Assembly (NCBI GenBank): GCA_951406725.2
Contig: OX597814.1
Location: 88,784,001-88,848,000, forward strand
From: Octopus vulgaris
Lineage: Eukaryota
Direction of reading: 5' to 3'
DNA: 64,000 bases
The translations under genes were made by a program, and so were the position numbers. Within the stretch, counting starts at the first letter, position 1; every line of letters begins with the position of its first letter. Below, piece after piece: positions 1-62,890 of this stretch. The notes below the pieces were generated by a model. That model was given only the letters and a program-made list of their open reading frames with translations. It had not been told where the DNA came from and made no database searches.

Positions 1-1915
1 CCCTTCAGTGAACGTCCTTCCTTATATCCGCCCACTATTTCGGGGAAAAATTATTCGGGCTCACCAAACTCAATGGAGACCTGCGCCCCATTGCGGTCGG
101 CTGCACCCTTCGCCGTCTCACTTTATTATTATTAGAGGAGGGATGAATTTCCCCCACTCAGCTAGGTGTAGGCACCAAATTTGGATGTGAAGTTGCTGCC
201 CACGCTACCAGAGCCTATTCCAACTTGCCCTCCTTGTCACCGAAGGTCATCTTCAAACTTGACCTAAAGAATGCCTTCAACTCCATCAGCGCGATGCTGT
301 CCTTAGCTCAGTAAGAGAGGAGGTCCCACAACTCTATCGTCTCTTTCGGTGACCAAATCATCACCTCCGTCTCAGGAGTCCAACAGAGCGACCCACTCAG
401 GCCCGCTCTGTTCGCACTGGGCATTGATGACATCACCAAAATGGGCGTCGAGCTACACCTCAACGTCAGGTATCTCGACGATGCTTGTTTGGAGGGTTCT
501 CCGGACAGGGTTTTCGGCATTACAAACATGATGGCTGGAGAGCTTGGTTGCAATTGCTGAAAAAATATTGAAGCTATCGAACCTCATCAAGGTTTCTTCA
601 TACTTAGGAATTACCTCTCGATCCCTAAGTTTCTATATTTACTCAGAGTCAGCTCATCTTACCGATTCCCATCGTGCCTCCAACGCTTCGACAACCTAAT
701 CTTTGAGAGACTCGAATGCTTAGTCAGTGTCAGACTCTCTCCAACGTCCCACGACCAGGTTGCATTGCCCAAGCGATTTTGAGGTCTTGGTCTTCGTAAG
801 TGTTCGTCCCTCTCTCTCTCTCCTGTTACCTTTCTTCCACCCACACCTGCTCCACCCTAGTGAGCAACATCCTCTCCTCTCCAACATAGACCAGTCCCAA
901 CAGGGAGATGGATGAAACTCTCCAACACTGGAGGAAATTGGGCTTGTCTGCTCCTGAGAAGGTGGAGGACTGTTGGTGTCAGATAGCTTGGGACAACATA
1001 ATTTCGAAGGCCACCTTTGACTTCCTCTTAATCCAGTCAGACAAGTTTTCAAGTGCCAAATACTCAGGTGACTAGAATGATGCTATCGCTGTGGCTAATG
1101 TTGGTGGCCTACTCAGCTTGGACGAACTTCGTGCCTCCATTGCCCTCAGAGTGGGAGCTGACGTATGTACAGGTTTGATCTGTCGTTATGGCAGGCTCCT
1201 CGACTTCACAGGCCTCTATGGCCTTACTTACCGCCTGAATGCTGGTCGCTTCACGCATCATACGGAGTTGAACCTGATACTCATGAGGAACCTGGCCCGA
1301 GCAAACATCCCCTCCATCTTGGAACCGTCTGGATTGTCCAGATGTGATGGGAAGAGACCTGGCGACCTCACACTGTGCCCCTGGTCGCAAGGCAGATGCT
1401 TTGTGTGGGATGTCATAGTTAGCAACTCTTTAGCTTCTTCTCACATCCTGGATGCTGTGGTCAGGGCGAGATCCACAGCTTCTGCGGCCGAATGGAGCAA
1501 AATCCTGAAATACCACGATCTGTCGGCCAGCTACATTTTCCATCCTTTGGCGTTCGAGACGTTTGGTGGGGTCGGACTATTAACTGCGAGATTCCTGTCT
1601 TCACTGGCAACTCGCCTTGCAGAGGTAACTGATGAGGCTCGTGAGGGCGCTTGTCTGTTCCAGAGCATCAGCCTCGCCATCACCCGCAGCAACGCTGTCA
1701 GCGTGCTGGCGTGTCTCAATAGCCATTAGAGAAGTTTCTCAGCGCCCCAACTTTTCAACCCAAGGTGACGAATTGTTTTAGTTTTTTTCTTTTTTCTCTT
1801 CTTTCTTTTTCTCTTTTTTAAAAGTTTTTTTTTTCAATTGTGTTCTCTGTTTTGTCCAGTTTTCTTGCTTGATTTTTTAAAAACGGTAAACACTGTGAAG
1901 GCAATAAAAGGAATA
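1..1915 (+). mobile_element. Decayed CRE-clade non-LTR retrotransposon (RT + restriction-like endonuclease), 5' part outside the window
   Basis: RT motifs are readable across frameshifts: NGDLRPIAVGCTLRRL (~72-119), QLGVG, KLDLKNAFNSI, GVQQSDPL and YLDD (471-482). The C-terminal ORF 1091-1729 has a decayed zinc knuckle and the REL-type motif DGKRPGDLTLCPWSQGRCFVWDV...PLAFETFGG. A T-rich 3' UTR ends in GGCAATAAAAGG. Confidence 0.88.
1091..1729 (+). pseudogene. Remnant ORF: zinc knuckle and REL endonuclease domain of the CRE-like element
   Basis: The 212 aa ORF from the track contains KRPGDLTLCPW..G...WDV and PLAFET.G. The upstream RT part is broken by stops and frameshifts. Confidence 0.8.
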
Positions 1916-1942
1916 TACATGCATGAAATTATCTCTTTAAAG

Positions 1943-2479
1943 CAGCGCATCTTAAACTTTTTTCATTCATGACTCCATTTTCATCACGAAATATTCACAA
2001 TCCCAGGTATTAGATATGAAATAAAACCTCAGGTATTAGATTTGAAATAAAACACAAATAAATACATAAATCATTTTAATTTTTTGCTGAACAATATACA
2101 TATAAAAAGCAGTTATATTATTTGTCAAAATAAAAGTAGCTTTAAGATTTGTTTCAAGTACAAACCAAAGTAAAAATCAATGTGACGGATATACTTGCTT
2201 TTTGCTGCATAACAAATTAAATCATGGTGTAAATTTTAACGCTGCTGAACGTAAAGCATCTTTTACGTTTTTCAGCGTCGAACGATATTTTGAGTTAAAG
2301 CTGAAAATGTCGTTTCACATAAGTATGTGGTGCTAATTGACAAAAGAACTTATATTGCCATTTCAAAAATAACATATAAACTAAAATTTGTGAAATAACA
2401 TATAAACTAGAATTCAAGTGTTTGAATTTAATTTTCGCGACCCCACTTGGGACCACAACACATAGTTTAAGAAGCACTG
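1943..2479. mobile_element. hAT (Charlie-like) MITE
   Basis: TIRs CAGCGCATCTTAAACT / AGTTTAAGAAGCACTG. 8-bp TSD CTTTAAAG (1935-1942) / CTTTAGAG (2480-2487). Confidence 0.8.
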
Positions 2480-2604
2480 CTTTAGAGCATCAGGCAACGT
2501 TTGTAAGTTTCTCTTTGCAAGGTTAGTTCTGGCGTTAGCGCTTAAACAGTGTAGAGAAAGAGACCCGCAACATTCAAGCAGTTTTAATAATGAGGAAAAC
2601 TAAA

Positions 2605-2812
2605 GGCGGTGAGCTTGGTAGAATCGTTAGCACGCCGGGGCAAAATGCCTAGCGACGTTTCGTCCGTCTTTACGTTTTGAGTTCAAATTCTGTCGAGGTC
2701 GACTTTGTCTTTCAGGGTCGATAAAATAAGTGCCAATTGAATACTGGGGTCGGGGTAATCGACTTACCTCTCCCCCGAATTTGCTGGCCTTGTGTCAAAA
2801 CTTGAAACCAAT
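2605..2812 (+). mobile_element. tRNA-derived SINE, family S1 (core GCCTTTCATCCTTTCGGGGTCGAT)
   Basis: Head GGCGGTGAGCTTGGTAGAATCGTTAG, B-box-like GAGTTCAAATTC. Many homologous copies occur across the window. Confidence 0.8.
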
Positions 2813-4062
2813 AATTGGGAAATCTTTTGTTTTGATATGAGTATATGGTATAAGTTTTTCTTTCTATTAGGAAAATAATTTGAATACATGTTGAGCAATA
2901 TTGATTTATTTTAATTTTCTTTTTAATTAGTTCAAGTTAAACAGAGTGGTGTATTGACGGTATTCATTTTGTATCGACAAAGAATAATCAAAAACTTTGA
3001 ACTTTCGTTTCTTTTTTGTAGTTTTAGTGGTCAAAAAACATACAAACGTTACGCAATTATTTTCTTTCTTACCAATAAATTTTAAATCTTGTGATTTCCT
3101 AAAAAAACAAATTTGGCTTTTTGACAAACGTGTTACATAAGCTCTGAATACCTATATAGTAAGAGAGGGTTGGAATGTATTGAGATGTTCATACTTCATC
3201 GATGAATTAGCGGCGTGAGAAACTGAAAACTGAAACAATATCAAAGATCTCGGGAACTTACTATCTAAACGATTATTTAGTAAATAAAGGTCTGTTTTTC
3301 TCAGACAGCAGGTGCAGTCTATTGGATGAACTTTCATATATTTATACTACTTAATCCCGTCCAGAAGGATGATACTTAGAGATTAAGCAAGATTCGAAAT
3401 CCGCTCATATGGCGAATGACGTGCAGTAGGCAGGTTTAGTCCGTAACTTGCACTTATTTCATTTGGTTTAGAAATTGCACAAACATCAAGGAATCTCATT
3501 TTGCTTCTAAAGTATTGTACAAATATAATATATTAAGTATTTCGAAATCATCTTTCTCTTCAGATACCAAGAATTGAATCACAAAAATAATTTCAATATT
3601 ACAGATATTGCTGCAGAATTAACGACTTTATTAAATTCATTTTACTAATGTTTAGAATAATCACAAAGCTACAAGCTGTGTTGCTAACGAAATATTGCAA
3701 TGATCCTCTACTGTTCTATTGTTTTTTACCAATCGATCACTCTAATATTGTGCAATTTTGATTTTATACATTGCCACAGAGCCATAAATTTATAGAGAAG
3801 ACGTATTTCATTAAATCGTTCTCAAAATAGTATTGTTAATTATTTTATCAACACTTAAGAAATAAAAGGCAAAACTGAGTCTGGTGGGATGTGAATCCCA
3901 CACACATAAATTCCACACGTACTTCGTCGTCTCTGCCACCTCTTAATTATTATATTATGCAATATTATTGCCACAAAAATAAATATCTTATTGAATTGAA
4001 ATACTATTGCATCTAATTTATCTTTTACTCTTTCCAAAGCTGGCAAATAAATACGAGTTATA

Positions 4063-4282
4063 TACGGGGGTGGTGGAAAAGTCCTTGCCTTTGGATTAAA
4101 GAAAATACAGTAGGATCAGTTAATTATGATTTTATTCAACATATTCCCCTCTCAGATTCACACGCTTATTGCAGCCGTCCTCCAGTTTTTCTAAACCGTA
4201 TAAAAAAAACTCGGCAAGTTGGACCTCTAGCTAAGCTTTTTGCGATACCCTTAAAGCAGAAACCTTTCAGAACCCGCTCATA
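4063..4282. mobile_element. Tc1/mariner-type MITE
   Basis: Imperfect TIRs (TACGGGGGTGGTGGAAAAGT / ACCTTTCAGAACCCGCTCATA) flanked by TA. A second copy lies at 57569-57827. Confidence 0.7.
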
Positions 4283-4589: not shown

Positions 4590-5000
4590 AAGCGACTGGC
4601 TAGTGGAATCGTTACGCACCGGGCAAAATGCTTAGCAGCATTTCGTCCCTCTTTACGTTCTGAGTTCAAATTCCGCTGGTGTCAGCTTTGCTTTTCATTC
4701 TTTCGAGGTGTATGAAATAAGCATCAGTTGAACACTGGGGTGGATGAATTCGACTTATTCCCTCCCCCGTAATTGCTGGCCTTTGGCCAAAATTTAGAAT
4801 CAATATTAAAAGCGGGAAAGATGCTTCGCGGCATTTCGTCCGTCCTTACGTCGGAGTTCAAATACCGCCGAAGTCGATTCTGCCCCTTCGCCATCCTTTC
4901 AGGGTCGATAAACTAAGTACCAGCTGAATACTGAGGTTGATGTAATCGACTTATCCCTCGCCCGAAATTGCTGGCTTAGTACCAAAATTTGAAATCAATA
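4590..5000 (+). mobile_element. Two tandem S1 SINE copies
   Basis: Each copy has GAGTTCAAAT and the TCATCCTTTC.GGGTCGAT-like core. Confidence 0.75.
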
Positions 5001-5002
5001 CT

Positions 5003-5214
5003 GTTTTCTACTCTAAGCAAAAGACTCGAAATTTTGGGGGAGGGGGCCAGTCGATTAGACCGACCCCAGTACGCAACTGGTACTTAATTTATTGACCCCG
5101 AAAAGAAGAAAAGCAAAGTCGACCGCGACGGAATTTAAACTCAAAACGTAAAGATAGACGAAATACCGCTAAACGTTTCACCCGGCGTGCTAACGTTTTT
5201 GCCAGCTCGCCGCC
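5003..5214 (-). mobile_element. S1 SINE in inverted orientation, abutting the preceding copies
   Basis: Reverse complement of the S1 consensus, ending in GCCAGCTCGCCGCC. Confidence 0.8.
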
Positions 5215-5441: not shown

Positions 5442-5819
5442 GTAACATTATAATGTTAGTGATATAAGAAAGGTACAGAGTTAATTTTCTCCTTAACTCA
5501 GCAGTGTCTGGGTTCGTGACGTTAAAAGAATTGCCTACATTATGTTTTGTATTATGGTTCAAGTTAAACAAGTGCAGAGGAAAATTTGGGTTGGTTGAAA
5601 GAAATAGAAAATAGATATTTATATCAATTGTAAATGAAAAAATATATGACTAATCAAAGAATATGACAATAAAGAATATATCTTGTAGGTGTTGGGTTTA
5701 AGAGGGCATTCTGACATGGTTCTTCTTTTGTGTACAGACTGTGTGAATTAAGGTAGAGAGTGTCAGGTTAGGTTGTTTTTTAATAGCTAAAGTAAAACAT
5801 ATTGACATTCACACAATGA

Positions 5820-5960
5820 TATATGTATGTGCGTCTGAGTATACGTACGTATGTATGTATGTATGTATCTATGTATACATATACGTAAATGTGTGTATAT
5901 ATATACTGCATGTGTACATGCACGTATATATATATATATATGTATGTATGTACATGTATA

Positions 5961-6008
<48 letters not shown>

Positions 6009-6252
6009 CATATATATATATATGTATGCATATATATGTATATATGCATGTATATATATATATATATGTATGCATATATGTATATATGTAGGTATAAATA
6101 TATATATATATATATACGTATACATATATATGTATATATATGTATGTATGTATATATATATGTATATATATGTATATATGTATGTATATATATATGTATA
6201 TATGCATGTATGTATACATATATAGGTATATATTTGTATGTATATATATATG

Positions 6253-6286
<34 letters not shown>

Positions 6287-6299
6287 CATGTATGTATGC

Positions 6300-6349
<50 letters not shown>

Positions 6350-6360
6350 TGTACATATAT
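5820..6360. repeat. Compound (TA)n/(TATG)n microsatellite
   Basis: Direct reading. It is the source of the spurious Y/I/M/C/V ORFs. Confidence 0.95.
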
Positions 6361-6895
6361 ACACATAAGAGGCATCCCAATTCCACTGGTAATATTTCTG
6401 ATTACCCTTTGATATTATTAATTATTGATAATTTTTTTCTGGATAATTTTCGAATTGAAAAGACGGCATTTCTATTTACTGCCGACAAGGAGCTGCGCTT
6501 GTGTGGTAGATTTGAAAAATTAGAATGCATAAGCACGGGCATATAGTGGATTGCCTCGTGTATATATATTTAATCTAAGGTGTACCTGCTGAAGAAGACT
6601 TCGCCTAGCAAATTATTTCATTTGCTAAAATAAGTCTGAAACCATTGGTCCAGGAATTACATGGTTAAATGTTTTTATTTTTCATTCCCTTCGAAATTTT
6701 ATCTCTAATAGTGGTTTGGAATTTAACTGTTCTCTCTAGCGTGCAAGGAGTCCTTATGATGGATGCCTCTTATGTATTTAAATGTACACTGTATTTATAT
6801 GAGTAATATATAGTCTATTGACTAAACTTTTACACGCTAGGCCACTGGTAATGGAAATTTCTAGTATTTCTGATTACCCTTTGATATAATTTATT
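6360..6895 (+). mobile_element. Penelope-like/retrozyme-like non-coding element with partial tandem structure and a hammerhead ribozyme
   Basis: The 3' end CCACTGGTAAT...TTTCTGATTACCCTTTGATAT occurs at ~6383-6416 and again at ~6842-6886. A short 5' inverted segment ACATAAGAGGCATCC pairs with GGATGCCTCTTATGT (~6761). It contains a hammerhead motif, is flanked by microsatellites, and has a relative at 62626-62890. Confidence 0.65.
6585..6654 (+). ncRNA. Minimal type I hammerhead ribozyme
   Basis: Stem I CCTG/CAGG; core CTGAAGA (6589-6595); stem II AGACTT/AAGTCT, extended by TAGCAAAT/ATTTGCTA; GAAA (6638-6641); stem III ACC-ATT-GGT. Predicted cleavage after GUC (6650). Confidence 0.8.
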
Positions 6896-7065
6896 ATGTA
6901 TGTATGTATGTATGTATGTATGTATATATATATATGTATCTCTCTAATAATTTATGTATAATTTGTATTATCTCCCTAGTTTTTTGTGCTAAGCCACTTG
7001 GTGTTAAATTAATGGTATTATTAAATTAATATCAATTTTTCACCCTCATTTATAAATATATATGC

Positions 7066-7120
<55 letters not shown>

Positions 7121-7125
<5 letters not shown>

Positions 7126-7390
7126 TATAGAAGAACCAGCATGTAGCAATTCGACAACGATATACTTAAATCATACCATATAGAAAAAAAATAAAGATAC
7201 GATAAAACATTTACCTAGAACTAAATAAAGTACGAAATAATAAATAAATAGTATATAATTAGTAACTAGAATTACTACATGGTGGTTCTTCTCTAATTTA
7301 TATACATATATTACATATTGTGAAATTTGATTTAGTATTATTAAATTGAATTTTTCCCTGTAAGTTTGGAATCATATTCCCTAATATTAT
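7121..7390 (+). mobile_element. Fold-back + tail element (family T1, Penelope-like remnant)
   Basis: Inverted arms 7121-7151 / 7269-7300, then the tail TTTTCCCTGTAAGTTTGGA...CCCTAATATT shared with the copies at 32745, 33299, 36029 and 39198. Inserted in (TA)n. Confidence 0.6.
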
Positions 7391-7863
7391 TATTATGTAT
7401 GTATATGTATGTATATATGTAAATGTATGTGTATATGTATATATATGTGTCTATATATATGTATATATAAGTATATATCTTTCTATATATAATAATGATA
7501 ATGTGTGTGTGTCCGTTTGAATCCCTAAAACTTGAGAACTACACAACCAATTTAATTCAAATTTTACACCTGCCTTACTTAGGGTCCGTGTAGTGTCATA
7601 GGTCAAAAGATTTTAAAACTTGTTCCCTAGTGCGATCCCAGAACAATATCATATCTCCTCCACTATTCCAGTATTACGTGTCAAAAATGAAACAATAACA
7701 TCTCTCTATTGTAATGTAGGATATTTTCACTTTAATACTGAAACTATTAAAGTGAAACTATTATCTCACATATATACAGGCTTACATACATATATACAGG
7801 CATCCATATATACAATATATATATATATATATATACACATCTGCACAAATGTTTATATATAGA

Positions 7864-8228: not shown

Positions 8229-8232
<4 letters not shown>

Positions 8233-8478
8233 TGAAGAAATGGAGTTGAGCGAAGATTGAACAGAAATCGTTTTAAACGATTTCTGTTCAATCTTCGCTC
8301 AACTCCATTTCTTCAATTCACTAATAATATTAAAATTCAATTATCCGCACCAACGCACGGTTGCAACACCATATGGTTGTACCTCCAACCGTGCTGTCTT
8401 CTGCTGTGATTTTTGCTACCAAGGTATCGGTTAAACTTTTGATTAATCTGCCACAAGATTATTCATCTTTCTATTTCA

Positions 8479-17977: not shown

Positions 17978-19799
17978 TATGTTTGAGAAATAAGATATCA
18001 TTTGCTATCATCTCGTTTCATTTCATCACATCTTCATAGAATAATAATGAAATCCGTGTATATCCCCAAAAGTAAGGAGCAGAGCTTTCACTATCCATAT
18101 TATATGCAAGTCGTTTGAAATAGTTGAATTTGTATTGCATTTATCATTAGGATTGTACAATTTAGGGAAGGAGCATAGCCGCTTGCGTTAATCCCCAAAT
18201 ATAAATAGTACTTTTTTATTGACCCTAGAAGGGTGTAAAAGAAACTCGACTCTATTGGGTTTTGGACCCATAGAGAAGAATAGTGCAGGATATTTAATCC
18301 TGCACCACTTCAGTGCCTACCCTAATTATAATCACGCTAATCCTCATCATAATAAACATGATCATTAGTTAGGAGTTGTGCTCCAGAACTAGCGCGTGAC
18401 TCACAATCATCAAGTAGAAAATAAAATTAACAAATCTGTTTTTCTTTTCGTCAATTTTCAGTCAAACTTAAAATGTCTTATTTTCTTCTATTAAAAGCAA
18501 ATTATGGATAATTCTATAAGATTCAAAGAGCGCCATGCTAGAGGGGAATGGTCAGATTAGAAGTCATCGAAAGCCCAGACAAGATTAACAGATATTTGAA
18601 ATAATGAGAAAATACTGAAACAGCGAATGGAAAAGTAAAGTACAGAATTATGTTACGGCTATCATTGGCTGTTTATGCTATAACTTTAACTGAATCTTAT
18701 TGCTAGAGTAGACCCAATTCCTCAAATGTAAGCATTTCTTTGCTTATACACAGAAGGGTTTCACTTGCACTTAAGTTACCGAAATTTTGCTTTTGTATTT
18801 GTTTTGCAAGATTCTTGATGAGAAATGCGAAGTCGACCTCCGTATTTTACTCAACCAGATTATTAGACTACCAGAAAGAATACATCCTATTAAAGAGGAG
18901 AATCCTTCTCTTTCGTGAAGGGGAATTTTGGTCTAGGTGAACCATGTTTGGCGAGTTCGGTGTAATTATGGGGTTCTCGGACATCACGTAGATCACAACG
19001 TTGGAGTGTTGAAGTGTTTATGCATTACAAAGTCAAGGGGAACTTCTTTCACTTCGGAAGTGGACGACATTGGAGTGACACTCTATTTACAGACTCTGAA
19101 TTTCACCATCTGAACTCGAGAGACGGAGGAAAGGCTGTCGGGTCAAACTTTCTCCCTAGTTGCCCGAGGGGTTTTCTATGTCCACCAGTTCTCATCTTTT
19201 TTTGTCCATCACTGTAGAAGCCGTGCTGTAACCCTACTTTTAAATTTTCATTTTCTTTTGTTTTAGTCAGAGTTATATATGCGTGTGTGAGGGTGAGAGA
19301 AGGGAGATAGATAGATGGATACATAGATAGATAGTTACGTGTGTGTGTGTGTGTATCTATGTGTGCCTTTGTGTCTTTGTGTCTGTGCTTACCACTCATT
19401 ACCGCTGGACAACCTACGTTGGTTTGTTTACGTCCCCGTAACTTTAGCGGTTCGGTAAAAAAAAAACAGACCGACGGAATACGTAATAAACTTTTAAAAA
19501 ATAGGTACTGGGGGTTATTTGTTCGACTAAACCCTTCAAAGCAGAGCCCCAGCATGGCCGCAGTCCAATGAATGAAACGGGTGGGTGATAAAAGATGATT
19601 GGAAAGGATCACTCTCCATTGATAAAATTGTATGTGTGTGTGTGCGTACGCGTATTTGTGTATGTATGTGAATTTGCATAATTTTAAATTTACTCATTTA
19701 TACGTGTGCCCGAGTGCGTGTTTCTGTCTGGGTACTGTGCGAGTGCGTGTGTTTAAATCAATACAGAGAACGTAGTTTACGCTCACACACAAACAAACA

Positions 19800-20140
19800 A
19801 ACAGCTGCACGGGAGCGTATTTGCCGAGATAACTTGAGGTCAAGCGAATATTCAGCAATAGTTGATCTTCATAAAATAGACTGTATGAATTGCACTTGAA
19901 AAACAACTGATTGGAAAATTATCAAGTCAACAGGTTATGTCTAATTATGTTTTACACGTGGATCTCATACACACAGATCCACGTACAAACATACTCCAAC
20001 ATAACCTGTTAACTTGATAATTGTCCAATCAGTTGTTTTTCAAGTGCAATTCATACAGTCTAGTTTATGATCAACTATTGTTGAATATTTGCTTGACCTC
20101 AAGTTATCTCGGCAAATACTCATGCACATGTGCAACTGTT
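19800..20140. mobile_element. Long-TIR MITE / fold-back element
   Basis: ~140-bp imperfect inverted arms (TTGCCGAGATAACTTGAGGTCAAGC...CAGGTTATGT / ACATAACCTG...GCTTGACCTCAAGTTATCTCGGCAA) around a ~60-bp spacer. Confidence 0.8.
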
Positions 20141-20185
20141 TGTGTGTGGCGGGCATATGGCGTAGTGATCATAATAATAATGATG

Positions 20186-20333: not shown

Positions 20334-20659
20334 AGATGAGGACAAAACCAGTCAAAATGTAAATAATGTAAATAACCACCGCTACCTATTTTTTAAGGTT
20401 TACTGCGTATTCCATCGGTCTGTTTTTTTTTGCCGAACTGCTAAGTGATGAGGACGTAAACACACCAGCATCGGTTATCAAGAAGTATTTTTTTACTTCT
20501 ATTTTTTAGCGATATAGGTACTCATGTAGTACCTTTGTATATATATATGTACATATCTAATATTGTATGTATATATTTTATTAATTTGCCTGTACGGCTG
20601 ATAATTCGCTTACCACTCGTGATGGAATTTTAATGATACCATCCCTACATATATATATA

Positions 20660-21207
20660 AAGAGAAGCTACACAAAGAAAATCGTCTCAATGCAAAATAT
20701 CAGCTACTGGGAAAGACTGAAGGTATTAAACCTCTTCTCCCTAGAGCGGCGGCGGGAGAGATATGCGGTGATATACATCTGGAAAATCCTGGAGGGTCTT
20801 GTCCCAAACTTTGGCATTCAAAGTTACTCCAACCGCAGAACGGGGCGCCACTGCATGGTGCCAAGGATTCCAACATCACCATCAAAATACAGGTCCAGAT
20901 ACTGCAACAGCTTGGGTTTCAGAGGACCACAGCTCTTTAACATCCTCCCTAAATGCCTGAGAGACTTACATGGTGTGGATGTGGGTTTCTTTAAAACTAA
21001 ACTGGATCTCTTCTTGTCGGGGGTCCCAGATGAGCCTACCTCACGACAGGAGACGCGGATGCGGGCAGCAGCATCGAACTCCCTTGTTGATCAAGTGCCA
21101 CGTATCAGAGGTGGATTCACAAATTAGTGTAGCTCATTCAGAGGTGGTGCCCCAGCATGGCCGCGGCCTTCGGGCTAAAACATTTTTAAGGATTTAAGGA
21201 TTTAAGG
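20660..21207 (+). mobile_element. 5'-truncated CR1-group LINE 3' end
   Basis: ORF SYWERLKVLNLFSLERRRERYAVIYIWKILEGLVPN...FKTKLDLFL is the typical CR1-group ORF2 C-terminus. 3' stem-loop and (TTTAAGGA)n tail. Inserted in (TA)n. Confidence 0.85.
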
Positions 21208-32744: not shown

Positions 32745-32746
<2 letters not shown>

Positions 32747-33168
32747 GGGAATATTATTCCGAACTTACAGGCATAAATTCAATTTAGTAATACTAAATCA
32801 AATTTCACAATATATAATATATGCATATAAATTAGAGAAGAACCACATGTAGCAATTCAACATTGAAATAACAATGATATAATTAAATCATACCATATAT
32901 AAAAAAACTAAATATACGATAAAACATATAACATATACCAATAATTTAGTAAAGTACAAAATAATAAATAAATAGTAAATAAATAGTATACAATATCCTA
33001 TTATATACTGTTTATATACTATTATAGACTATTTATTAATTATTTTGTAATTTACTTAATTATTGGTATATGTTTTATCGTATATTTAATTTTTTTCTAT
33101 ATGGTATGATTTAATTATATCATTGTTATTTCATTGTTGAATTGCTACATGGTGGTTCTTCTATAATT

Positions 33169-33260: not shown

Positions 33261-33299
<39 letters not shown>

Positions 33300-33454
33300 T
33301 TAGGGAGTATATCCAAACTTACAGGGAAAAATTAGATTTAGGATTAAATCAAATTTCACTGTATAAATATAAATTAAATTAGAGATAAAACCACTATTAG
33401 GCAACTCAAACAGTGATAGACATAAAGCAATATATATATATATATATATATATA

Positions 33455-33524
<70 letters not shown>

Positions 33525-35980: not shown

Positions 35981-36027
<47 letters not shown>

Positions 36028-36028
36028 A

Positions 36029-36300
36029 TATTATATTAAATTAGAGACAAAACCACTATTAGGCAAATCAAACAATGAAAAACTTAAGCCAATACATATG
36101 ATTAATTTATATTATTTAAATATATAACAAAATTTAATATAAATTAATCATATGTATTGGCTTAAGTTTTTCATTGTTTGATTTGCCTAATAGTGGTTTT
36201 GTCTCTAATTTAATATAATATAATATTTTACTATAAAATTGGATTCAATCCTAAATCTGATTTTTCCCTGTAAGTTTGGATTTATTCCCTAATATTTATT
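36029..36300 (+). mobile_element. Fold-back + tail element (family T1)
   Basis: Essentially perfect ~85-bp arms around a ~20-nt spacer, then the T1 tail. Inserted in (TA)n. Confidence 0.75.
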
Positions 36301-37194
36301 ATTATATATATATATTATATAAGATCCAAGGATAGAGGCGTAGGAAGAAAGTTAGCTTCAAGTAATCTGTAGTAAATATAAAAAGCAAATTTCAGTGACG
36401 ATATTGAGATGGAAGGGTCTAGATATTTTCGTATTGAAGTACGATAAACTGAAAAAAGTTCTTTATATTTCACAGCAGGCGACCAGGTTTGCCGGGTATG
36501 CGAATAAGAATACAAAAGTTAAGGAATGGAGTCGATAACATCCGGGCTACATAAGTTTCATATCGAGAGGAACTTCGGAAGTGGTAAATATCCAAGCGAG
36601 GTGTATACTGCAGATTACTCCTCAGGCCAAGAATATCTTGATTAAATGGAAGTTTACATTCGCAAGGAGGTACATGTTAACATACACACACGCGCGCGCG
36701 CGCGCAATCAATCATTATGAATACGTACGGCGATCCTTCGATATTAGTTTACAGAGTGTTAGTATGAAGAGACGACGTCATTCACCTCGTTTCACCAAAA
36801 CCTCTTTATTTGTCATGAGGGATGGCAGCATGGCTGAATGACGTCATGTACCAATACCGAAAGACTTTATTACATAAAGTGTTATAATAGATTTATATAG
36901 GTGCAGGCATGGCTGTATGGTAAGAAGCTTGCTTCCTATACACGTGGTTCCGGGTTCAGTTCCACTATGTGGTACTTTGAGCAAGTGTCTTCTACTGTGT
37001 TTGACCCACACCACCTCTTGACAACCGGTGTTGGTTATTTACGTTCCTGTAACTGAGCAGTTCGGCATAAGAAACCAATAAGTACCGAGCATTAGAACAA
37101 ATTAAAAATAAGAAGAATTGGGGTCGATTTCTTCGACTAAAACTTTAAGGCGGTGCCTTAGTATGGCTGCATTCTAATGACTGAAACACTCACT

Positions 37195-38182: not shown

Positions 38183-38403
38183 ACGGAGATGTACTTGCAT
38201 AGCAAGTGACCTGATCTTAGATCGTGTGCTGGAACGAAAACAATTGCAGCGTGAAAAGTGTTTATAAGCTATTTAAGAAACACACGAAAACCGTTAGATT
38301 CACTTCAACATTTAAATTTAATTTGCCAAAATATTTTCGTCACTTTGAGACCGCGAAATGTTCACTGATGCAGTACGGAATTTTGTCTAATGACTGAAAC
38401 ATG

Positions 38404-38462
<59 letters not shown>

Positions 38463-38660
38463 GCAGTATGGCCCGGCGTTGCTCGGGTTTGTTTTTTAAT
38501 TCCTATGAATAAAAGTATAGTGTGGCGATGCTCGAGTTTGCTCTGAATGTGCTGCAAATGCGTAATGCCGACTTCAATAAGTCAAAGCGACGAAAATATT
38601 TTGGCAAATTAAATTTAAATGTTGAAGTGAATCTAACGGTTTTTGTGTTAGATTCACTTC
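38183..38660. mobile_element. Long-TIR MITE with its centre replaced by filler DNA
   Basis: 38282-38348 is an inverted repeat of 38582-38647. The centre 38386-38578 copies 37173-37352. Confidence 0.7.
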
Positions 38661-39197: not shown

Positions 39198-39207
<10 letters not shown>

Positions 39208-39489
39208 TTCGAGACAAAACCACTATTTTGCAAACTTCATAAATTAAAACAGATTAGGAGATCGAAAATCCACCTGACGAATGTCATTGAAGACATGAAA
39301 CGATTGTAGTGGCGGTTTATTTCTTTATATTAAACATTTTATTTATTGATTAAGTCTTTCCTTGTTTGTTTTGCAAAATAGTGGTTTTGTCTCGAATTAA
39401 TATTATATAATATTTTACTATAAAATTGGATTTAATCCTAAATCTGATTTTTCCCTGTAAATTTGGATTTGATCCCTAATATTTATTAT
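39198..39489 (+). mobile_element. Fold-back + tail element (family T1) carrying a hammerhead ribozyme
   Basis: Arms 39198-39234 / 39370-39409, T1 tail, hammerhead in the spacer. Inserted in (TA)n. Confidence 0.75.
39270..39312 (+). ncRNA. Minimal type I hammerhead ribozyme
   Basis: Stem I CCAC/GTGG; CTGACGA (39274-39280); stem II ATGTC/GACAT; GAAA (39297-39300); minimal stem III AC-GATT-GT. Predicted cleavage after GUA (39308). Confidence 0.82.
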
Positions 39490-39501
39490 TATTATATATA
39501 T

Positions 39502-51612: not shown

Positions 51613-51688
51613 GTCCCTGTAACGCAGTGGATAGCGCGCTGGACCTCTTCTAATCCAGAGGTCATGAGTTCGAATCCCACCGGGAATG
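51613..51688 (+). pseudogene. tRNA-Arg(TCT)-like pseudogene, retroposed with an S1 SINE tail
   Basis: GTCCCTGTAACGCAGTGGATAGCGCGCTGGAC[CTC]TTCTAATCCAGAGGTCATGAGTTCGAATCCCACCGGGAATG resembles tRNA-Arg(UCU). It has a 3-nt insertion in the anticodon loop and stem mismatches, and is flanked by a TSD. Confidence 0.75.
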
Positions 51689-54239: not shown

Positions 54240-54296
<57 letters not shown>

Positions 54297-54302
<6 letters not shown>

Positions 54303-54672
54303 GCACATATGGGTATAGGACGTTACAAACCGGTCAAACAACATGAAGTATGTAAACAACGAGAAATATGGAAAACAGGACGAGTAAACACAAACAAATG
54401 ACCCTTCATCAGTTGTTGGCTGTCTATCAACTCCTCATTTCGAGCATTCAACGACAATATGAGTCATCAAAGACAGTTGCTAGAATTTATGGGAGCAACT
54501 GCCTTTGAAGACTCAAACTGCCATTGAATGCTCGAAATGAGGAGTTGATAGACAGCCAACAACTGATGAAGGGTCATTTGTTTGTGTTTACTTATCCTGT
54601 TTTCCATATTTCTCGTTGTTTACATACTTCATGTTGTTTGACCGGTTGGTAACGTCCTATACCCATATGTGC

Positions 54673-54678
<6 letters not shown>
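54297..54678. repeat. Long fold-back element (~185-bp arms, 12-nt spacer) in (TA)n
   Basis: 54297-54481 is the reverse complement of 54494-54678 with few mismatches. Confidence 0.9.
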
Positions 54679-54723
<45 letters not shown>

Positions 54724-62625: not shown

Positions 62626-62887
62626 AATACAGTGTATATTTAAACACATAAGGAATCCACTCGTGGGATTCCTCATGCTAGAAAGAACAGCTACGTTCTA
62701 TAACCCTCATTTTGTGGTTATAGAACCTAGCTGTTCTTTCTAGTATGATGAATTCCATGAGTGGATTCCTTATGTGTTTAAATGTACACTGTATTTTATG
62801 ACTAATGCATAGTCTTTGGACTGAATTTTTACATGCTAGGCCACTGGAAGTGAAAATTTCTATTAATTTCCATTTCCCTTCGATATG

Positions 62888-62890
<3 letters not shown>
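62626..62890 (+). mobile_element. Fold-back + tail element related to 6360-6895
   Basis: Arms ~62626-62704 / ~62716-62795. The 3' arm and tail (TTAAATGTACACTGTATTT...GCTAGGCCACTGG) are homologous to ~6725-6890. Confidence 0.7.

Follow-up and report, generated by a model that had tools for sequence, protein, structure and literature searches.

A non-coding hammerhead repeat of about 471 nt in Octopus vulgaris, probably a retrozyme inserted by a Penelope-like element

The element described here lies in a 64,000-nt stretch of Octopus vulgaris contig OX597814.1 (assembly GCA_951406725.2, positions 88,784,001 to 88,848,000), referred to as a whole as the window. Very probably, it is a dispersed copy of an abundant, non-coding, hammerhead-bearing repeat of ~471 nt, likely a non-LTR retrozyme that travels as a passenger of Penelope-like elements (PLEs), and was likely inserted by the reverse transcriptase-endonuclease of such an element, which would have used an RNA template of more than one unit. 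A template exceeding one unit is supported by the analysis, the direct arm of the insertion representing ~527 nt of template, or ~1.12 units.

An earlier note on this DNA had recognized that the 3' terminus of the element occurs twice in direct orientation, and alignment of 6383-6425 with 6842-6897 bore this out: 41 of the 43 aligned bases were identical, with one 13-nt gap in the 5' copy, and the score of 59 was above the maximum obtained among 1000 dinucleotide shuffles (44). The 13 nt missing from the 5' repeat correspond to one arm plus the loop of the terminal hairpin. The spacing of about 460 bp given in the note was slightly short, since a period of 459 applies only to the first 10 nt and one of 472 to the remainder. 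The short inverted piece at the 5' junction is indeed present (identity of 25/28 between 6350-6377 and 6761-6788; score of 41 vs. a shuffle maximum of 28, none of 1000 shuffles being as high), but it starts 10 nt further left than had been proposed and corresponds to an interior part of the unit instead of its 3' terminus. It may extend leftward to ~6338 (unit position ~6795-6800), blending into the microsatellite. Any target-site duplication at this first copy would be hidden, because the left flank is itself a microsatellite. The region is 76% AT, in a 64-kb window that is also AT-rich and abundant in dinucleotide repeats; an automated repeat search of 5800-7500 returned nearly exclusively microsatellite matches and missed the gapped direct repeat (Table 1).

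The absence of a credible coding sequence, also part of the earlier note, was corroborated. The longest stop-free frame within the element in six-frame translation had 60 codons, lacked a Met and spanned the inversion junction, and a Pfam search of the element's frames gave no match. The unit contains neither the ORF with reverse transcriptase and GIY-YIG domains that lies between pseudo-LTRs nor an LTR, PBS or PPT architecture (PBS and PPT judged by eye only), and the first copy is not an autonomous PLE. With one hammerhead it represents a monomer-class locus, unable to release a monomer because only one ribozyme is present, and the ends of the insertion do not coincide with the predicted cut site. 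It differs from the majority sequence of public run X1 at 17 positions at least (about 3%; 40 of 85 variant rows listed). Given the single ribozyme and these private differences, the first copy is probably an aged, dead-end daughter.

Table 1. Features of the two copies of the repeat, in coordinates of the window
Feature	Position	Strand	Remark or basis
Left flank, (TA)n/(TATG)n microsatellite, ~530 nt	5820..6349	.	Likely target
Inverted arm	6350..6377	-	Reverse complement of 6761-6788
5-nt filler between arms	6378..6382	.	Matches neither arm's continuation
Partial upstream unit, its 3' end	6383..6425	+	Equals 6842-6897, minus 13 nt
Whole non-coding unit	6426..6897	+	472 nt here; family period 471-472
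Right flank, (TATG)n/(TA)n microsatellite	6898..6935	.	Sequence
Type I hammerhead motif	6585..6654	+	Descriptor match; predicted cut 6650/6651
Distal helix I	6574-6578 with 6657-6661	+	4/5 pairs in first copy
Folded 3' domain (predicted) enclosing P1	6710..6846	+	6710-6715/6841-6846, 6736-6743/6833-6840; weak, two independent copies
Tail of ~100 nt, direct arm only	6796..6897	+	Terminal hairpin 6847-6878; P2 ~6897
Second copy, more diverged (79% identity)	62626..62890	+	Window comparison

The hammerhead that had been placed between the two repeats was recovered as well. A loose type I descriptor matched three times in the window, compared with a mean of 0.03 in 60 shuffled windows, and a strict descriptor, its cut chosen to fit this match, matched once vs. 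none in 60 shuffles. The motif comprises a helix I of 4 bp (6585-6588 with 6651-6654), the core CUGAAGA (6589-6595), a helix II of 6 bp (6596-6601/6632-6637) closed by an A-U pair and followed by an 8-bp extension, GAAA at 6638-6641, and GUC at 6648-6650. Helix III has 3 bp and a 3-nt loop, which together are near-palindromic, and the predicted energy of the helix III dimer duplex was -8.9 kcal/mol. The base at 6660 that completes the 5-bp distal helix I is found in ~96% of family depth (X1) and is lacking in the first copy. Rfam gave no hammerhead call at the locus even at E 10, only weak or microsatellite-driven matches. The pattern CTGANGA-N4-34-GAAA missed the motif because the core-to-GAAA spacer is 43 nt, and its six other matches in the window were at chance level (7/100 shuffles).

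The active hammerhead fold lies 1.1 kcal/mol above the minimum-energy fold (-16.1 vs. -17.2 kcal/mol), and folding of the 101-nt hammerhead region was only modestly better than that of shuffled sequences (z -1.65, 13/200). At the family level, T occupies core position C3 (6589) in 7-31% of depth, and the closing pair of helix II (6637) is disrupted in 10-59%. The distribution of variants over the hammerhead (one row at 42 paired and four rows at 28 unpaired positions, among the 40 of 85 rows listed) was excluded as support by the analysis. The complete unit was predicted to fold well as a circle (-109 vs. -93 ± 5.6 kcal/mol in 60 shuffles, z -3.0).

The second copy in the window, 56 kb from the first, is flanked by (CA/TG)n on the left and (TA)n on the right. 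It is 5'-truncated and has neither hammerhead nor terminal redundancy; this does not refute an origin from more than one unit, because a 5'-truncated copy would look so. Of its two arms, the inverted one (62626-62705) reaches unit position 6795 and the direct one (62714-62890) ~6891; the corresponding ends of the first copy fall between 6788 and 6800 for the inverted arm and at ~6897 for the direct arm. Two end points therefore recur, P1 at ~6795 and P2 at ~6897 in unit coordinates (~145 and ~247 nt after the predicted cut site, respectively), and contigs from public runs meet simple repeats at 6800 and 6425 (equivalent to 6897). The one-sided extension amounts to ~95-100 nt in both window copies (2/2), vs. 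30-40 bp for the published tail. Both copies are flanked by dinucleotide repeats, a weak test in a window rich in such repeats.

The direct arm of the first copy fails to reach the P1 of the upstream unit by ~46 nt (one case), a shortfall that fits one template common to two priming events. For the second copy, whose arms fully overlap and start within a few bases of each other, two units, displacement on one RNA, or snap-back would be needed. As for the predicted 3' domain around P1, three double-sided changes were counted between the two copies, with 56 of 500 shuffles as high and the control unbeaten, and structure-pair counts on three rows showed no excess over shuffles.

An arrangement in which one arm ends internally and the other 70-100 nt further was found in 6/6 insertions, two of this family and four of two others (families B and C); in the latter four, the second arm ends 70-90 nt later at a similar CCC-ATAT-type end. 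This count left out the fold-backs at 19793-20147, 38282-38648, 54251-54723, 8229-8319 and 4607-5198, the first three of which are without a one-sided tail and are probably terminal-inverted-repeat (MITE-like) elements. Family B, of PLE type, is represented by 39200-39490 and 36012-36305, both with an inverted arm, a direct arm, a one-sided tail of ~70-85 nt and TA flanks, and by a further piece at 33273-33481. The copy at 39200 carries a type I hammerhead motif (39270-39312) with a CUGACGA core, an A-U pair closing helix II, and GUA as the predicted cut triplet. A 13-nt word is common to the ~471-nt unit (6705-6717) and family B (33388-33400, 36050-36062 and 36187-36199), upstream of the internal end point in both. 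Family C (7102-7392 and 32745-33168) has the same arm-and-tail layout as family B, to which its 3' end is related, and one of its copies starts ~200 nt to the right of the first copy; the hammerhead descriptor gave no match on these two family C copies.

The stretch, or part of it, was present in 20 of the 24 public sequencing runs listed, from 13 studies and under five organism labels, and the family is abundant (1,335-4,189 contigs per run in four DNA runs). Among the joints listed for the DNA runs (15 of 89), 6879 to 6409 (back 471) occurred in 4/4 runs, and 6861 to 6390 (back 472) and 6873 to 6414 (back 460) in 2/4 each. A joint from 6876 to 6406 occurred in 3/4 runs guessed to be RNA, with none listed in X15. 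Overall, the head-to-tail junction was found in 7/8 runs examined. One contig of 463 nt (X18 record 17) runs through 6781-6876 and then 6406-6794, a nearly whole permuted unit, and other contigs are continuous from 6390-6406 past 6600. Contigs that lead from the junction to the hammerhead without room for an ORF (X18 record 17, X5 record 25) were found under organism labels A, C and E in DNA runs and A and E in the runs guessed to be RNA, with differing variant patterns. The ORF-less period of ~471 nt is thus a property of the family. Given the recurrence of the junction and the nearly whole permuted unit, the repeat is a separate small family and not merely the broken end of a coding element.

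These data also bear on the remaining proposals of the earlier note. Of the tandem arrays or circular permutation of ~460 bp for which it proposed to align genomic copies, the public contigs show a head-to-tail junction, with a period of 471-472. As regards the Penelope pseudo-LTR or retrozyme architecture it proposed, copied from more than one unit, the junction in all DNA runs and most of the runs guessed to be RNA agrees with it, but the pseudo-LTR option fits worse than a small non-coding unit, because the contigs from junction to hammerhead leave no gap for an ORF.

Contigs do not show RNA ends, and tandem DNA, read-through RNA and circles look alike in them; several bridge 6650/6651. The RNA status of the four runs is a guess, and they were not used for or against expression or cleavage. 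The fraction of contigs continuing into unlike sequence was only 0.02 for DNA and 34-42% in three of the runs guessed to be RNA, where some contigs continue 200-255 nt into unlike sequence at 6666 and 6698. Strand-changing joints made up 5 of 15 of those listed for DNA and 4 of 10 of those listed for the runs guessed to be RNA, which indicates that inversions are common in the family. Depth in X1, which is not copy number, was ~122,000 near the 3' end vs. 2,700 at 6434-6487. The blocks of highest depth were 6666-6698 and 6776-6811; since other sequences are joined to the family in contigs at 6666 and 6698, the blocks may be cis-signals common to sister families or to a putative autonomous partner. 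A scan of metagenomes with an 18-nt motif gave nine loci, but every one was a chance seed (18-37 nt) beyond which there was no similarity.

On the features tested, the unit fits among the metazoan non-LTR retrozymes as these are characterized in PMC7229834 and bioRxiv 10.64898/2026.07.22.740005. Both have non-coding units that are low in GC, measure a few hundred bases and carry one type I hammerhead; the head-to-tail arrangement, the dispersed near-monomers and the proposed mobilization by PLEs are also shared. The unit length of 471 nt compares with 350-390 nt in mussel retrozymes and a range of 51-972 in Li, Clavereau and Pollet 2026. By the two-unit rule of retrozymes, the first copy, with its single hammerhead, would not be classed as "active", and no inverted arms with tails are described for retrozymes in the parts of those two papers that were covered. 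Non-LTR retrozymes are considered to derive from PLE termini, and in frogs only 1/9 predicted retrozyme dimers cleaved (bioRxiv 10.64898/2026.07.22.740005).

The hammerhead itself is nearer the PLE type than the canonical retrozyme type. It shares with PLE-type metazoan hammerheads (Cervera and de la Pena 2014, PMC4209133) the CUGAAGA core, the short helix I, the long helix II, and a short, near-palindromic helix III suited to dimers. In the PLE-linked Marsupenaeus row of the alignment in that paper, too, helix II is closed by an A-U pair right next to the core. The present hammerhead differs from these PLE-type motifs in a helix II with a 4x4 internal loop and a second stem of 8 bp, giving 43 nt from core to GAAA. 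Two supplement files of PMC4209133 contained no cephalopod terms, and literature searches (two of them covering the top-ranked results), with PMC7229834 and bioRxiv 10.64898/2026.07.22.740005 covered exclusive of their supplements, returned no paper describing cephalopod retrozymes. An annotation paper on Octopus vulgaris lists recently active Penelope families, with no mention of hammerheads in a term search (PMC13282606).

The marks left by PLE insertion comprise partial tandems, an inverted 5'-truncated copy, a tail of 30-40 bp at one end and a bias to (TA)n, and non-autonomous elements of such kind are mentioned in Chlamydomonas (Craig et al. 2021, PMC8557442). The present insertion resembles those of endonuclease-bearing PLEs (PMC8557442) in its partial tandem with 5' truncation, inverted arm and likely AT-rich or microsatellite target, and in a hammerhead located shortly before the end points (PMC8557442; PMC11167929). 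It differs in the absence of an ORF; its one-sided extension, which may correspond to the published tail, is longer at ~100 nt (PMC8557442), and its first end point lies ~145 nt after the cut site, as against ~85-92 nt in the anole element (PMC11167929). A purified PLE protein cuts and extends both strands of AT-rich DNA and begins reverse transcription at two sites within the RNA, which delimit the tail; hammerhead cleavage was not required in that system (Frangieh et al. 2024, PMC11167929).

A mechanism compatible with these features can be proposed. Transcription of a tandem source locus would yield a multimer whose adjacent hammerheads would pair through the near-palindromic helix III and cut at GUC. 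Binding to the folded 3' domain, a PLE protein would nick the TA microsatellite on both strands. From the DNA end on the right, cDNA primed at P2 would extend over about 1.12 units; the end on the left would prime at P1 and copy about 35 nt to give the inverted arm. Untidy joining of the two cDNA ends would leave the 5-nt filler and the 13-nt skip. Such two-site priming would yield a direct arm with a tail, an inverted arm without one, and an untidy junction. With roughly even confidence, we take the template to have been a linear multimer, likelier than a circle because insertion did not depend on hammerhead cutting in the one PLE tested in vitro.

The same family and enzyme could have used instead a religated circular monomer copied slightly over one round, an alternative that we regard as possible but somewhat doubtful. 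The excess of ~0.12 units and insertion ends away from the cut site would be expected of it, the unit folds well as a circle, and the ~46-nt shortfall of the direct arm (one case) could mark a lap halted by a second priming complex; a linear multimer, however, would yield identical DNA. Religation would leave no seam in a circle at the cut site, and tandem read-through RNA is likewise amplified by divergent RT-PCR. Coral, mussel and axolotl retrozymes do accumulate as circles (PMC7229834), but hammerhead mutants still inserted in vitro, no anole RNA-seq reads ended at the cut site (PMC11167929), and the present hammerhead is similar to the PLE type, whose activity is weak (PMC4209133). An elaborated version, tentative and on balance unlikely, would have a circular-RNA retrozyme of a cephalopod on which one PLE complex primes from both DNA strands at two fixed RNA sites ~100 nt apart, one inside the folded 3' domain and the other just past the terminal hairpin, the first cDNA circling once and stopping at the second complex. 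A strict assignment of P1 and P2 to the two strands would not be explained by the start-site choice of the anole enzyme, which is the same on both strands (PMC11167929). If two-site priming on a circle were true, it would provide a direct genomic test of how retrozymes retrotranspose, and a tail of such length, seen also in two further families of the window, would point to a lineage of PLEs whose primers are spaced more widely than in the published accounts cited here.

Two further readings were considered. That the sequence is a pseudo-LTR, truncated end or one-off internal deletion of an autonomous PLE would agree with the PLE type of the hammerhead, with the far higher depth near the 3' end, and with the contigs that run into unlike sequence in three runs guessed to be RNA, for which sister families or a coding partner are possible sources. 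We consider it improbable: the ORF-less path from junction to hammerhead occurs under several organism labels with differing variants, which a deletion at a single locus would not produce, and neither six-frame translation nor Pfam revealed a coding remnant. A purely local accident, in which slippage or fold-back repair in an unstable microsatellite generated the repeat and inversion once a plain insertion had occurred, with the hammerhead matching by chance, has a negligible probability in our view. The AT-rich composition, the short, partly TA-like inverted arm, and the lack of a ribozyme in Rfam might suggest it, but the sequence from 6426 is what follows the 3' end in other copies, the copy 56 kb away shares both end points, the descriptor almost never matches shuffled windows, and the junction in 7/8 independent runs largely refutes it.

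By itself this locus changes little: retrozymes are already known in many animals, and the first copy is a daughter of some age. Only the long tail and the two end points go beyond the published accounts cited here. The locus adds one more case for the proposed movement of animal retrozymes by PLE enzymes, for which the support given in those accounts is co-occurrence and shared termini, and here the unit itself bears the PLE insertion pattern. The recurring end points and the ~100-nt tail provide a concrete in vitro prediction for PLE priming sites.

Other features of the window include SINE-like repeats, presumably of the octopus type, a 217-codon stop-free frame at 1076-1729 (+), with no Pfam match at E 0.1, which we take to resemble the restriction-like endonuclease end of a non-LTR retrotransposon, and a 180-codon frame at 20585-21127 (+), with no Pfam match, presumably similar to the C-terminal part of a CR1/L2-type LINE. 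The one tRNA in the window, at 51613-51688 (+), is a weak Rfam match (35.6 bits) whose anticodon arm carries a 3-nt insertion; it is possibly a pseudogene or a repeat derived from a tRNA.
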